Shown: in pieces, positions 12,001 through 18,000 of the stretch
How the letters are laid out: the number at the start of each line of letters is the position of its first letter
Position numbering within the stretch: position 1 is the first letter of the stretch
From: Escherichia phage TL-2011c
Length of the DNA: 60,523 nucleotides
Reading direction: 5' to 3' (one strand)
Sequence record: JQ011318
Position numbers: made by a program

Positions 12001-15000
12001 GTGCTAGTTGGGCTTCTTTGGGTAAAAAAAGGCTGCTCATAAGCAATGGTTTATCGGGGAACATGCTGATAAGCTCCTGCGCCCGATCATCAATCCATTT
12101 ATCCTTTTCATCCTGAATTTGCTGATTAATCCAGCGACGCTCCTCTATGCGGTCGCAGGTGAGGTATGCGTTCATGGCGGAACTCCTGATTCCGGTTAAT
12201 GCATTAAATTAATTTGTCGGGAAAGCTGACATACAGGGCAGTTACATTCTTCCTCCTGCTCCTTAGCGAAGAAATATGCAGCGGCCTGTAATGCGATATC
12301 TTCTGGATGTTCCGCGATAAACATAACATTGCCTTCCGTATCAATAACAGAAATAGCCTCATCAGACAGGACGACAAAATAGGCGATGATTTTATCATCC
12401 ATAAAAACTTCTCCCATTATCGTTCCTGCTGGAGTTACGACGCTTTTTACATTGATATTTATTTTTTGATTGAGCATGATATTTCCCTTCAGGCTGGTGA
12501 GATTAACGGTTGGCCTTTATTGTTCAGGTAAACTTCTATTGCATCTGAGATAATGCGAATTTTTTCAATCAGTGAATGTGCGTAAAGTGCATTATTAACG
12601 TTCGCTGACGCCATGTAATAACGCCCGTTGTAAAGAATTGCTGTGCCGGGTTTAACGTCCTCGCGAGAAACTAATGCGGTTCCGTAGTGAGGTTTGAGCA
12701 TGACAAATCCTCCGGTTAATTAATCCAGATATTTAATTTAATCCCCGATATGTGGTCGGGGATGGGGTTAATTAAAGATTTACGTTGAAACCAAAGCGGG
12801 AAGACTTTTCTGATGTACGGGAAATATCCAGCAATTTACGGCGCATTTCTTCCGTCAGATGCTTGAAGGCGTTAAATTCGGCGACAGCGGCGTCAACGTT
12901 ATAGCCTTTGCTGTGTAGCTCATTGAGGATGCGCATAGTTGGGCTTGGCATATCGAAGAGCACGGAAGCATCAAGGCTGATAACCTTGCGATCAACATAG
13001 TTCATCGTGGCGTAGGGATGGTTATCTGAGAACCACGAGAGAGGGTAGTTGATAGATAGCGTTGATTCTGGAAGCTGAAGTTGTTCTGGGATTTTTTGAC
13101 TGAAATAGCAGTCTTCCAGTTTTTCGAACACTTCCCACGCCCGATCGGTTTCGAGCATTTTTGCGTGACGGGCTGCGCCGCGTTCTGTCCAGAGGATGAG
13201 GGAGCGAACGTTACGGGCGATTTTCACAGAAGGTCTTAAAGACATGCTGTGCTTAAATTCCCGCAACTCCTCATTCTCAAGTAAAAAGTAGTGCTTACCG
13301 ATAACAAATCGTCCAGAATTCCGATTGAAATTTTTTCGGATGTAATCTGGTTCTGTGCCATATAAGCTGGCAAGAAGCTCTGTAGTCACCACAGGTATAT
13401 TACTAAATGAAATTATGGAGAGGGACTCCACGGAGATGGTTTTCATGCTTTGCGTCCTACTTGATATTTTGATTTACCCCTTTTGAGAGGGTGACCGGGC
13501 GCTCAAAACCGCAAGTAGTCGGCGGGCATATTCCCATTGCTGGTATTGTATTAGCCGCACGCCCGGTCATAAACCAAGAAGACTGGACACAAAAAAACCG
13601 CATGTCTGTCGGGCGCGGTAACCGCTACTTGCTAAGGCGTTTTGAGCACCATGAGGCAGAATATATCCCCGTTAATGCAGCATTGTCAAACGATCTGTTC
13701 TTTAAAGACTTAACGAGAAGCCTTTTCGGGAATTTCGATCTGACAGTCTTGAAATATCCTGTAGCGTGCGGCGCATTTCTTCCGTCAGATGCTTGAAGGC
13801 GTTAAATTCGGCGACAGCGGCGTCAACGTTATAGCCTTTGCTGTGTAGCTCATTGAGGATGCGCATAGTTGGGCTTGGCATATCGAAGAGCACGGAAGCA
13901 TCAAGGCTGATAACCTTGCGATCAACATAGTTCATCGTGGCGTAGGGGTGATGCTCTGAAAACCACGACAAAGGGAAATTGATATTCATCGCAGGAGAAG
14001 ACAGGGCCAGTTGTTTCTGTTCCCATAGTTGTTTTTCCATGCGATCGAATTCAGCAATGTAGGCTTCCTTGAATGCAGCTGCTTTTTTGCCGGTGAAGCC
14101 CATCACCAGAAAAACGAAGCCGTTTTTGGTGATTTGGTACATTGGGCGTTGTTCGCCTTTGGCGTCGGTGTAGGTAACGTCCTCAAAATTGAGGGCGTTA
14201 AATTTCTCTGAGCATTCAATATTTGCAATGGCGCGCAATACGTTATCGTGTCGCTTGCAAAAATATTCGGCAACGGCAAAGGACGTAGTAACAGCGCGAC
14301 CATTGGAAATGGTGATTTCAGGTTGAGAAAGGACTGGGATAGTAGCCATAATGGCAGCCTCCTTGATTGGTGATTGATAACCACCGCTGGAGGTAGCAAG
14401 CTCGCTGGCGGTGGACTGTACAGGGTTGCTACAACTGGCAATCAAGGGAACCAGCCCGACCGAAGTCGGCCCCATACAGCCCACCATTGATAAGATGTGC
14501 GTGTATGTCGATACAAAAAAAGACGCTGGCGCGTCTGTATCGCCTCGATTGTCAGCGGGGTAGCAATCCCGACACCCGTTTTATGAGGTGTTCGCCAAAT
14601 ATAGCCCCGACATCACACGCAGTCAATACCGTTCTTTCTCAGAAACGCTTTGGCGGTGCCGCCTGCACCCCAAAACATTCCCTGTATTGGTCAGCGCCAA
14701 CTTCCTGCCAGTGTTGCCCGTTCTCACGCCGTTCTCGCTCTCGCGCGGGGATACTCTCTCATCGACCGGATCGCACCCGATGATACAGCACGTTTACGTG
14801 TAGGGGTCTAAACAGGTCATTGACGCTGTAAAGCTCCAGATTGTTAAAGAGCATTTTGCGGCGGGTTAAGTCGCGCCGTACGACTGATTTATGTAGCCCT
14901 GTGTAAGGGCGCGATGTTTCTGGCTTGAAATAAATATAACTTGCGGTGATTTTCATGTAAATACCGTTGGTGCTTTTTAAGGGCGAGAAATTATTACTTA

Positions 15001-18000
15001 ACTGATTTTTAAAGTGATTTATTTTTTAAGGGGGCAGATAACAGGAGGGGATATGCAAAGAAAAACCCGGCGCATGGGCCGGGCTATTTATCTGGTCCTG
15101 TTCTCATTCAGTAGAGTAGGGGCCAAGAAATCGCACTCCGTTGAAGTGAATAAGATGAGAAGGTGCATCAGCCACCCATACCTCTGTTTCCCATGCGATT
15201 TCACCAAGATATCGCCCCATGATGGAGCGATTTGGAAAAGCGGTCACATAGACAAGTCCGGCTGTTGATCCGGCAAACAGCCTGGCAAGCTCAGCATGCC
15301 GCTTCCCATCAACCGGTCCATGACTGGTGACAGACTCAACCAGTAGCAGCCAGTTTTTCGCAGTAAAATGTAGCACCACATCTGGCATTTTACCGTGTGA
15401 ATCCACATCAACACCTAGCCCGGCCAGCAGTGGAGCGTCGAAGTAGCCCCACTTTTCGCCAGTGTCGCCAGCATAGACCAGCACGCTACCCGGAGCAAAA
15501 CGTGGGGCGAAGTCCTCTATTATGGCACGGATAAGTTCGCTGTGCTCGCCGGGACTGAGGGTTATTTGCTGGCCCGCAGCAATTTCAACAGGGATACGAT
15601 TCTGTTCGCGCTCCTTAGCATAGCGGGTAACCAGCGTTTCACGCTCGGCTAAATAGGTTGCAAGGCTATCGTGCCATGCCGGGCTGCCGAAAGTGCGTAG
15701 CATGGACAGAGCAGCAGGTTCGATCTGATAAACAGCCTTCGGGCTGTTCACTGGGCGATCGGGCTTGTCCGGATTGTAGAGGGCTACTCCAGCAGCGCAG
15801 AACTGATGCATAGACTGGCGGCGGAATGTCTCACGAGTATTGGGTGCGTAGACCTTGCCGTAGTGCTCCCGAACCCAATTCATGATTGGTGTAATGCCCA
15901 CAAGCGGATTTTCCGCGTCGGCCCATGCTTTTCCCGGTGTGAGGTTCAGGAGTGCCAGCAAACACAAAGCAGAACGCTCATTCTGCTGCGCTCTGGGCAG
16001 GCCTAAGGATGCTATAATTTGCTGAGCGGCCTCAATATAATCATTTTGGTTGTTCATGCAGTCAGAGCTCCTAGCTTAGCGTCAATATGTTCTTGCGTGA
16101 GAGTTTCTTGTTGCATAGCCCACTTGCCAAGCTCTATCAGAGTGTCACGGCTTGGGTACTTAATCATCTTGAGGTCGGTTGCATTGACCTGTGTATGCCC
16201 GTTGAAGCGACGGAAATACTTATCCACTGCGGTAGTGTTCAGGAACACGGCCAAGCCACGGGCCAGCGCCTCGGGTAACCCATGTTTGTTCTCATGAAAC
16301 ACGTTCATGTGATTTTCAAATCCCAACACTGAATACTCACTGAAGGTAGCAGGATCAACGACGCTTGCTACCACTCGGCGCTTTTCCTCCTTCGACGAGA
16401 AACGACGCACCACACAATAAAAACCGTTCGGGTAAAGCCACTTTTCTGTCTCGTCGTTGCGCATGATTGCGTTGGGTTTCTTCAAACCTTCCACAGGCCA
16501 GACAGTGCTACTCATACTCAAATGGCTCGGGTAGATCAGGGGAACAGTTCCTTCTTCTGGCATGCTGCGCAAATGAGCTTTCAGTCGGAAATCAACTATC
16601 GGTCCGGTCGATACCTTCACGCCAATATCAGCCAGCGAACATTGTACGGCAGATGATAACTCAATGGTGCTTTTCTCGAGCGTGGTCGGCACATGAATAA
16701 ACCGCTCCGAATCGTCCGGGTACACAATCTGGTCAAATGGGTGTTCGTAGGTGACTAGGTCAAAAAAGCTATCATCGGTCGAAGTTGTGACTGTAACAGC
16801 CTCCTGACGGCCTCCACGCTCCAGGCGGATGATAATATTTTCCTGCAACACATCGTCATCCCTGAAAGCTTTGCTACGTGATTCGAACAAATGAATATGG
16901 CGGATTGCTGCCCGCTCAAGTATGAAATTACGGAACGGACGGTAATACGGTCCGTTGCAGAAACTACGTGGGATTATGGCCACTATCTGCCCGCCAGGTG
17001 CAACCTCACCTACAGCCAGTGCAACAAAGGCGGAATACAGATTTACCGTCTCGATACCGACAGTGCGAAGAGCCTGCCGGTGGGCTGACTGGCTATTGAT
17101 CTTCTTGTAAGGCGGATTAAGTATTGCATGGGTATAACCTCGATCCTGTAGACCTTCGGCGGTTGCCAGCTCAATATAATCCCCTTCGATGATGCGGGGC
17201 GTCACTCTCCTGTACCCGGTTAAGTGCTTCGCAAGGTGACCACACAGCTTTTTGTCGATTTCGTAGGCTGTTGCCTCGACAGACTCAAAGCCAAACTCGC
17301 CAACCAGCCAACGGTCGAGGAAGGCGCAAGACAGTGCGCCTAAACCAGCGCCTGCGTCCAGTAGACGGCAAGTTTTCATTGTGCTCGGTGGAAACAAGGA
17401 GGCCATAAAACGGGCCACGCCAGAAGGCGTCATTGAACTGGCCGAACTCTGCTTTGTGTTTACGCGCGGTACGGGGAGACAGCTCGCGACGCACGCTGTC
17501 TGCGACGTCTAGCTTTTGAAGCATAACTAATCCTCTTTACGTGGCATGATGATGCCAACGTGCTTTTGACATCCTCCACATTCTTCAGGCGTGAAGGATG
17601 TCAAATCACTCTGTGAGCTCAATCAAAAGTCTCATCATTCCACTGCGATTTGATGACCTTTCCGACAAACTGGCAGTTTTCGTTACACTCAATCATGTCG
17701 AATCGTGGGTTGAGCGGCTCCAGGTACGCTTTACCGCTCTCACGAATGAATCGTTTGAAGGTAAATTCATCGCCGTTCATTCGGGCCACGCAAAAATCGC
17801 CATCCTCGATTTCCCGTTCAGGGTCAACGAGTATCAGCATACCTTCAGGGAAGCTGGGTTTACCACCCTGCGGTGCGGTCATTGAATGCCCCTTGACCTC
17901 CAGCCAGAACGACCTGTCACTGGCTTTTGTGGTGGTGGAGATCCATTTAATCGCATCTTTTGCGGTGTACGAAATATCATCCATTGAGAATGCGCCAGCT

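Follow-up and report, generated by a model that had tools for sequence, protein, structure and literature searches.

The stretch of DNA considered here, hereafter the window, comprises 60,523 nucleotides (nt) of Escherichia phage TL-2011c (JQ011318), an O104:H4-type (Eru1/Oslovirus) Stx2a phage. The control region and leader of its early-left operon (minus strand, 15085..14516) embed an RNA, formed by a boxA, a spacer, and a structured domain of 111 nt, which is shared with phi80, whose record calls it nutL, and with many other enterobacterial phages and prophages. No N gene is harbored in this region or elsewhere in the window. Judging from its position and from the analogy with known systems, the leader would be a cis-acting, Nus-factor-dependent antitermination RNA working without a dedicated phage N protein; we regard this reading as probable, although not as a secure one. 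A widespread, covarying, boxA-headed leader RNA without a dedicated protein partner appears to be undescribed up to now.

A phi80-type leader RNA and its family

The RNA module consists of the following parts:

14691..14859, minus strand: phi80-type nutL leader RNA (boxA, spacer, and structured domain), matching positions 1-169 of model R1 with 189.8 bits, E ~1e-47
14841..14853, minus strand: boxA TGCTCTTTAACAA, the exact rrn-type 13-mer, sole exact copy in the 60.5 kb
14705..14815, minus strand: 111-nt structured RNA domain, RNAalifold consensus with the six helices H1-H6
14815-11/14709-05, minus strand: helix H1 (RNAalifold, as for H2 to H6)
14805-03/14719-17, minus strand: helix H2
14800-798/14727-25, minus strand: helix H3
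14789-87/14755-53, minus strand: helix H4
14783-74/14768-59, minus strand: helix H5
14738-37/14729-28, minus strand: helix H6
14789..14800, minus strand: local hairpin CACG-UAAA-CGUG with an A-rich loop, the 'nutL core' of the phi80 annotation, alternative to H3

A distant-homology search with 14965..14595 as the query revealed that the segment 14853..14666, starting exactly at the boxA, is about 94% identical to the corresponding region of phi80, HK225, and Klebsiella phage KO-TP1, phages that are otherwise unrelated in this region. Weaker, diverged copies were retrieved from Klebsiella ST13-OXA48phi12.2 and Edwardsiella Edno5. In all five, as well as in the most diverged member of the family (IMGVR_UViG_2852055501_000011, hereafter L155), the block comes right after the leftward early promoter, next to the repressor gene; in TL-2011c, the pL promoter and its operator lie 80 nt upstream of the leader RNA. 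The phi80 records (M11919, JX871397) annotate the block as 'nutL boxA', at which the homology begins, plus 'nutL core', the latter being the hairpin CACGTAAACGTG, whose equivalent in the window is 14800..14789; in M11919, moreover, 278 bp around the core are labelled 'nutL regulatory signal'.

With two conserved motifs, the block was fetched from IMG/VR and, among GTDB genomes, from those of Enterobacter, Kosakonia, Kluyvera, Citrobacter, and Escherichia, and a covariance model, R1, was built from 65 unique sequences. According to its sequence, the TL-2011c module is a member of the phi80-type 'nutL' RNA family defined by R1, and the match at 14691..14859 is the only copy in the window. The model retrieved more than 130 viral or genomic enterobacterial phage or prophage loci at E < 1e-20; the block is found in E. 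coli, Klebsiella, Enterobacter, Citrobacter, Kluyvera, Kosakonia, and Edwardsiella hosts or phages and in 224 out of 5,426 complete E. coli genomes (~4%), being annotated in none of these. No Rfam family matched it in a scan up to E = 10, and no account of the RNA family or of the function of phi80 N was found in the literature, the 1985 phi80 nutL paper and the phi80 genome paper not being covered.

The six helices of the RNAalifold consensus are also those of the single-sequence minimum free energy fold of the window. In the MAFFT alignment of the 65 unique sequences, the partners pair in 98.5% of cells, versus 32-44% when they are slid by 1-3 columns, and double-sided changes occur in 10 pairs, versus 1-2 in the slid controls; in a broader alignment, fitted to the model, double changes are found in 18 out of 25 pairs. 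The first sample had been fetched through a motif inside H5. In members fetched afterwards through another motif, H5 differs yet pairs (CCACCAA/UUGGUGG, UUAGCAG/UUUGCUAA, GCGCC/GGCGU), and the Eru1 lineage has CAUCG/CGAUG where the others, phi80 included, have CACCG/CGGUG, a compensatory change of a C-G into a U-A pair. This covariation establishes a consensus structure for the domain at the level of the alignment, and the structural claim rests on it, because the thermodynamic support is not significant (z = +0.9). The small A-rich-loop hairpin at 14800..14789, which is located 40 nt 3' of the boxA, covaries as well (AU 43 / GC 21; GC 40 / AU 18); it competes with H3, so that the two are mutually exclusive, and both of them covary.

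The boxA is conserved across the family. The identification of an exact rrn-type boxA in an earlier reading of this DNA from its sequence only (the sequence-only reading) is correct, TGCTCTTTAACAA at 14853..14841 being the unique exact match in the window. It is predicted to be a high-affinity NusB:NusE site, since the affinity of NusB:NusE for the rrn BoxA is about 10-fold tighter than for the lambda nut BoxA (PMC2800207). Many members, including phi80, carry GCUUUUUAACAA instead, in which GCUUUUU replaces GCUCUUU; the altered C is one of the two bases mutated to inactivate the suhB boxA (PMC5725501).

Downstream of the module, a motif CGCCAAAGC(A/G)TTTCT is present in the window (14704..14627, minus strand), in phi80 (~2800..2850 of our phi80 locus, L003), and in KO-TP1 (~2830..2880 of locus L005), standing in each case just before unrelated downstream genes. 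It may be one more small conserved element, or else mark a recombination junction.

Control region, local reading frames, and the absence of N

The elements lying around and over the module, together with one open reading frame (ORF) of the right operon, are:

15064..15085, minus strand: intrinsic terminator of the cI-methyltransferase-endonuclease operon (8-pair stem with six G-C pairs, T-run), just past the endonuclease ORF
15036..15052, minus strand: degenerate operator-like site ATCCCCTCCTGTTATCT, a 2-mismatch match to ATCACCnnnnGTTATAT
14933..14961, minus strand: pL-like early-left promoter TTTACA-17-TATATT, 10/12 consensus match
14934..14950, minus strand: CI operator ATCACCGCAAGTTATAT, overlapping the spacer and the -10 of the pL-like promoter
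14896..14910, minus strand: leader hairpin GCCCUUACACAGGGC, 5' of the boxA and lineage-specific
14956..14759, minus strand: ORF of 65 amino acids (aa), not considered a gene; its ATG lies within the -35 hexamer; spans the hairpin, the boxA, and H5
14762..14724, minus strand: short ATG frame, judged non-coding
14749..14705, minus strand: frame resembling an arginine-rich motif (ARM), reading PARERERRENGQHWQ, judged non-coding
18662..18955, plus strand: ORF34, 97 aa, PHROG 852 (unknown function), no Pfam match, directly after cro

The pL-like promoter aligns column by column with the annotated -35 and -10 of phi80 pL, and transcription is inferred to start near 14926. The operator pattern ATCACCnnnnGTTATAT has exactly two matches in the 60.5 kb, one at 14950..14934 and one at 18338..18354, in the cI-cro intergenic region. 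The 'operator-like' call of the sequence-only reading is therefore well founded, since the pattern occurs only at the pL-like promoter and between cI and cro. The degenerate site at 15052..15036, with its two mismatches, could possibly be a distal OL site. The earlier view of this region as the leader of a lambdoid early-left operon, equivalent to pL, operator, and nutL, is supported, and the terminator that had been placed at its upper edge, downstream of the cI-M-R genes, is indeed at 15064..15085.

The hairpin previously called boxB (GCCCTTACACAGGGC, 14910..14896) exists, with a stem identical to that of the lambda nutL boxB GCCCTGAAGAAGGGC and a fold of -7.9 kcal/mol (z = -2.6). As a boxB it does not hold: it precedes the boxA on the 5' side, its loop (UACAC) is non-purine, and it is not part of the conserved block. 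The boxA begins 42 nt after the end of the hairpin, not 45 nt as reported. The hairpin pattern is no rarer than expected by chance (three matches with at most one mismatch, versus 1.7 expected), while the boxA and the operator pair are rarer. A second leader hairpin, at about 14878..14859, also precedes the boxA; both are lineage-specific and differ from the 5' leader hairpins of phi80.

The sequence-only reading had left it undecided whether N is decayed, unusually short, or absent. In a tblastn comparison with known N proteins, lambda N, 933W N, and phi80 'N' gave best E values of 0.13 to 1.5 in the window, with no weak match within 14500..15050, and the first ORFs after the module in HK225, KO-TP1, and Edno5 retrieved nothing from the window. 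Neither the 65-aa ORF, nor the ARM-like frame, nor a 34-aa GTG ORF had a significant Pfam or PHROG match. Sequence comparison thus shows no N gene in the region or anywhere else in the window, in agreement with the published lack of N, CII, and CIII homologs in Eru1 phages, which are reported to form unusually unstable lysogens (PMC8044961). Absence is, then, the part of the earlier statement that stands, and decay the part that does not.

Regarding the 65-aa ORF, it does exist; it begins with an ATG inside the -35 hexamer, 4 nt before the operator and not within it, and so upstream of the inferred pL start. Homology with a known N protein was the outcome to look for here: no Pfam match was found, the PHROG match (E 0.038) is not significant, and the frame is not retained in the other subtypes. 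We judge from these comparisons that it is not a gene.

A decayed or frameshifted N had been suggested by the arginine- and glutamate-rich frame and the GA run at 14762..14705, the ARM-like frame being joined to an ATG by slippage in, or by one more GA unit of, the GAGAGAG run. The start-less frame PARERERRENGQHWQ (14749..14705) and the short ATG frame (14762..14724) are as described. Nevertheless, the rescue by one GA unit is refuted, since the segment belongs to the conserved non-coding RNA block. The ARM-like frame, the GA run, and the ATG (14762..14760) all fall within helices H1-H6 and their junctions, each base lying in covarying helices or junctions; phi80, HK225, and some 60 further unique sequences carry the segment almost unchanged, GA run included, and the phi80 annotation makes it nutL and not coding; in other subtypes, unrelated short hairpins stand in its place; and the ATG is owed solely to the compensatory G-to-A change in H5, the other members reading GTG. 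As to the GA repeat, the program TRF finds no repeat array there.

The first downstream ORFs of 112 family loci belong to many unrelated clusters, and an ORF of the phi80 'N' type follows the RNA in only about five out of 112. In the interval from -2.5 to +4 kb around 38 unique loci, CI (34/38) and Kil (28/38) are the sole recurrent proteins; the other 'cluster' seen often consists of an antisense ORF across the RNA, so that a hidden conserved partner in this interval was rejected. ORF34 was likewise discarded as a universal partner, co-occurring with the leader RNA in only 13 out of 54 loci. ORF34 has an internal arginine-rich stretch, FRKGNRARRSANTRLR, and is a conceivable RNA-binding protein. 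Tight co-variation of N and nut is known for lambda, P22, and phage 21; a conserved RNA beside interchangeable neighbors is not what a specific N-nut pair looks like.

The phi80 'N' (L003, 2853..3149; 98 aa) is located about 165 nt after the module. Its record reads 'early transcription antiterminator protein N, similar to lambda N'. No similarity to lambda or 933W N is detectable, there is no N-terminal arginine-rich motif, and the protein matches only a PHROG of unknown function, with no Pfam match above the curated cut-off. The annotation therefore deserves re-testing, given the lack of N similarity and of an arginine-rich motif and its presence after the leader RNA in so few loci.

Possible function of the leader RNA

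The terminators and operons that bear on the function of the leader are:

14516..14591, minus strand: isrK-family small RNA (sRNA) RF01394, Rfam 61.8 bits versus a gathering score of 50
14536..14521, minus strand: isrK intrinsic terminator (stem and U-tract), the first terminator met by pL transcripts
18392..23653, plus strand: early right operon cro, ORF34, ORF35, DEAD-box helicase, primase, NinB, NinG, Q (5.2 kb, overlapping genes)
23120..23653, plus strand: Q, end of the early right operon
23699..23718, plus strand: strong terminator just after Q
24359..24378, plus strand: strong terminator
26035..26058, plus strand: strong terminator

Antitermination is proposed as the function on the basis of five features: the nutL/putL position, the boxA, the sense-strand terminators downstream, the arrangement in L155, and the layout of the right operon. 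In TL-2011c, the isrK terminator must be passed by pL transcripts for all the early-left genes. A strong sense-strand intrinsic terminator is found within 1.5 kb downstream in 57 out of 75 unique loci (median ~430 nt), versus five out of 75 on the antisense strand. L155 harbors two copies of the RNA, 5776..5940 (+) and 3098..2917 (-): one of them follows the cI-side promoter, and the other (32.8 bits, exact boxA) is between cro-like and cII-like genes, i.e., in the nutR/putR position. All the other family loci (~130) have one copy each.

As regards the right operon, from cro to Q (18392..23653) there is no strong sense-strand terminator and no boxA, and no second boxA, core motif, or R1 match exists in the window, which means no nutR; phi80 has no nutR either, its copy being the single left-side one. 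This fits a right operon requiring neither a copy of the module nor N, because no strong terminator intervenes between pR and Q. The layout resembles that of N-independent lambda nin deletion mutants. The plus-strand terminators at 23.7, 24.4, and 26.0 kb were considered as obstacles to pR transcripts and dismissed, for they lie beyond Q, in the late tRNA/stx unit. In that unit, three tRNA genes (24095..24343, plus strand), STnc100 (25752..25957, plus strand), and AsxR (25959..26011, minus strand) flank the presumed stx2 genes. The AgvB/AsxR anti-sRNAs map downstream of PR' (PMC4104026) and, given this location and that of AsxR in the window, do not explain the leader.

According to these data, we can depict the following scenario. 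CI would repress the pL-like promoter through the operator over its -10; upon induction, transcription would start near 14926, and the transcript would carry the two lineage-specific hairpins, the exact rrn-type boxA, and, about 25 nt later, the 111-nt multi-helix domain. The boxA and the domain would act in cis on the transcribing RNA polymerase: NusA, NusG, and possibly SuhB would join the host NusB/NusE recruited by the boxA, and the domain would stabilize or complete the Nus complex. Thus modified, the polymerase would go on through the isrK terminator (14536..14521) and the stops beyond it into the antirepressor, kil, gam, recT, and exo genes, and no phage N protein would take part in TL-2011c.

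Several points weigh against this scenario. We infer antitermination, Nus dependence, and independence from a phage protein from position and analogy. The phi80 GenBank records place an 'N protein' gene beside the module and label the latter a 'nutL regulatory signal', thus implying N-dependence in that phage. The boxA of many members, phi80 included, differs at a C that is one of the two bases mutated to inactivate the suhB boxA (PMC5725501). The stability of the domain is no better than that of shuffled sequence, and the sequences behind the covariation are related to each other and were collected through conserved motifs, one alignment being fitted to the model. An unrecognised trans-acting phage protein may take part. 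Finally, rrn-type boxA/Nus complexes are established against Rho-dependent termination and act less strongly on intrinsic terminators, and the first obstacle in TL-2011c is an intrinsic one.

The comparison with known systems places the module between several of them. With phi80 'nutL' it shares the sequence from the boxA through the domain, the position after pL, and the single left copy without an annotated nutR. It differs in the exact rrn consensus of its boxA, in the pair already described in H5, and in what follows: the isrK sRNA gene, a C4 RNA, and an antirepressor gene instead of the 98-aa ORF called N. Like the lambda-type N/nut systems (lambda, P22, 933W/H-19B), TL-2011c has a leader after a CI-controlled pL, a boxA, an A-rich-loop hairpin 3' of the boxA, and terminators downstream; unlike them, it has no N protein and no nutR. 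Moreover, boxA and hairpin are separated by ~8 nt in lambda and by 40 nt in TL-2011c, where the hairpin (4 bp, covarying, UAAA loop) is embedded in the 111-nt conserved fold, which lambda nut sites do not have. The nut regions of lambda and 933W gave no match to model R1.

HK022 put is likewise a cis-acting structured RNA at the start of the early operon of an N-less phage, putL being just downstream of PL; it is ~70 nt long, with two stem-loops, left and right copies, no boxA, and no need for Nus factors (PMC9378689). Membership of the module in the put group was rejected, as size and fold differ and no similarity emerged: R1 has no match below E = 7 in HK022 22.5-31.5 kb, and blastn-short gives only chance 10- to 11-mers. 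The presence of a boxA in the sequence argues for an involvement of Nus factors, unlike put. With the rrn leader (boxB-boxA-boxC; NusA/B/E/G, SuhB, S4), the module has in common the identical boxA 13-mer and a hairpin before the boxA, and it would likewise work with host factors alone. It lacks a GU-rich boxC-like sequence in 14840..14700, having the 111-nt domain instead, and belongs to a phage operon; furthermore, it is against Rho-dependent and not intrinsic termination that rrn complexes are established.

A more specific form of the proposal is that boxA and domain constitute a third kind of phage early antiterminator, between N-dependent nut and factor-free put: self-sufficient, engaging host Nus factors via the boxA, deriving processivity from the fold, and needing no phage protein. 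We advance it tentatively, as an idea that we would sooner doubt than affirm. If it were true, such an element would control the early-left operon, including the antirepressor module, in the Stx2a phages of the O104:H4 and O103:H25 outbreaks, in phi80, and in many enterobacterial prophages, and the long-standing 'N' annotation of phi80 would be wrong or the protein dispensable.

Among the alternatives, the module might be an ordinary protein-dependent nut site, whose 14800..14789 hairpin is bound, together with Nus factors, by an unrecognised small RNA-binding N analogue, such as the arginine-rich ORF34 after cro or, in different phages, non-homologous proteins. The N gene and nutL 'core' hairpin of the phi80 record speak for it, as do the covariation of that hairpin with its boxB-like A-rich loop, the FRKGNRARRSANTRLR stretch in ORF34 (18662..18955), which has no known function, and the N-like protein encoded in the right operon of mEp021 (PMC11893012). 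We consider it unlikely, because no protein family co-occurs with the RNA, the figures for ORF34 and phi80 'N' being those given above, the latter has no N-terminal arginine-rich motif, and neither the window nor phi80 has a nutR. A conserved RNA with non-homologous neighbors is, besides, the opposite of the co-variation of N and nut in lambda, P22, and phage 21. Alternatively, the leader RNA could do another job, i.e., serve as a Nus-dependent attenuator, an RNA-processing or stability element, or a sensor setting the flow from pL into the isrK/C4/antirepressor module. An antirepressor switch under multilayered RNA control (isrK, C4, and an orf45-like leader) follows it directly, and the mutually exclusive local hairpin and H3, both covarying, suggest a possible switch; a boxA can also act negatively, that of suhB promoting Rho termination (PMC5725501). 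The downstream genes, though, vary widely among loci, so that the module is not tied to isrK/ant, and sense-strand terminators are their common theme; in L155, the nutL and the nutR position each have a copy. Typical RNase III substrates look different from these short and irregular helices. Such a role seems to us a little less likely still.

The least likely of these three is a functionless relic, namely a nut site vestigial from a phi80-like ancestor after the isrK module replaced N. It would account for the absence of N, for the left copy only, and for the end of the phi80 homology ~40 nt before the isrK promoter, a typical mosaic junction. We hold it to be very improbable: the N-less Eru1 lineage retains the module in more than 100 phage records at an identity of at least 97%, with a compensatory double change that preserves H5 and a boxA closer to the rrn consensus than that of phi80, and the structure is still conserved in the members without phi80 N, which are the majority. 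As for the decayed or frameshifted N, the helices, the shared non-coding sequence, the substituted hairpins, the origin of the ATG, and the absence of any significant family match or repeat array leave it hardly credible.

The cis-acting, Nus-dependent RNA remains the reading that we favor, and it concerns phages of the kind (Eru1/Oslovirus Stx2a) found in the outbreak strains O104:H4 (2011) and O103:H25 (2006). The escape of the early genes of these phages from termination has had no explanation so far; for the left operon, in which an isrK/C4 RNA switch precedes two antirepressor-type genes, the leader is the obvious candidate. Should host Nus factors suffice, this would be a new solution to the phage antitermination problem, in the form of an RNA family missing from Rfam and present in ~4% of complete E. 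coli genomes, and phi80 'N' would need re-examination; should a hidden protein be required, that protein would be a new N analogue worth finding.

The antirepressor region and the immunity side

The neighboring features are listed below:

14598..14626, minus strand: promoter-like site TTGACT-17-TATATT, ending 7 nt before the first base of the isrK match and thus suitably positioned for starting that sRNA
14404..14491, minus strand: C4-family antisense RNA RF01695, Rfam 77.4 bits versus a gathering score of 45; the antirepressor gene follows
13702..14487, minus strand: Ash/Rha/antirepressor-type gene (P13374 ORF29), first protein gene of the early-left operon
18332..17619, minus strand: cI, first of the leftward gene order
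16054..17433, minus strand: methyltransferase, following cI in the immunity operon, of a BsuBI/PstI-like type II restriction-modification pair
16057..15104, minus strand: BsuBI-like endonuclease ORF, immunity operon

The isrK-family sRNA, at the lower end of 14514-15050, and the C4 RNA beyond it had both been missed by the sequence-only reading. The gene at 13702..14487 matches Pfam Phage_pRha (5e-32) and Ash (1e-7) and PHROG 995/1760/373. Its first 46 codons (14487..14349) overlap the C4 RNA and match the N-terminus of Pfam 'Ash', and a good Shine-Dalgarno sequence and an ATG are found at 14349; the start of P13374 ORF29 looks like either an in-frame joining of the antirepressor to a leader peptide of the Gifsy-1 'orf45' type or a wrongly called start. 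In Gifsy-1 (Salmonella), read-through of the isrK terminator gives a long mRNA whose translation is switched on by the short sRNA (PMC4825925). The segment 14626..13702 of the window has, like the isrK-orf45-anrP module of that prophage, a promoter of its own, the isrK sRNA with a leaky terminator, and an antirepressor-type gene preceded by a short reading frame (PMC4825925). The differences are that the TL-2011c module is inside the pL operon, downstream of the boxA leader, that its orf45-like frame, which overlaps a C4-family RNA, continues in frame into the antirepressor ORF, and that the neighbor in Gifsy-1 is antQ.

The 631 bases at the locus are 100% identical to those of P13374, classified as Oslovirus, and phiON-2011, the Stx2a phages of the 2011 O104:H4 outbreak, and 97-99% identical to those of more than 90 related Stx phages, including phi191, PA2, ArgO145, and Ss-VASD. 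On the minus strand, the gene order is, leftward, cI, methyltransferase, endonuclease, terminator, leader region, antirepressor-type genes, kil, gam-like, recT, and exo. The BsuBI/PstI-like pair occupies the slot that lambda uses for rexA/rexB; owing to this location in the immunity operon, it is presumably expressed from the prophage.

The two antirepressor-type genes are in tandem (12772..13446 and 13702..14487, minus strand) and share a near-identical C-terminal module, with the same nested 47-aa ORF at 12855..12998 and 13785..13928. The Rfam family sRNA-Xcc1 occurs three times in the early-left operon (13485..13568, 4647..4732, and 5182..5271, minus strand; 65-80 bits, gathering score 53), one of the copies lying between these two genes.

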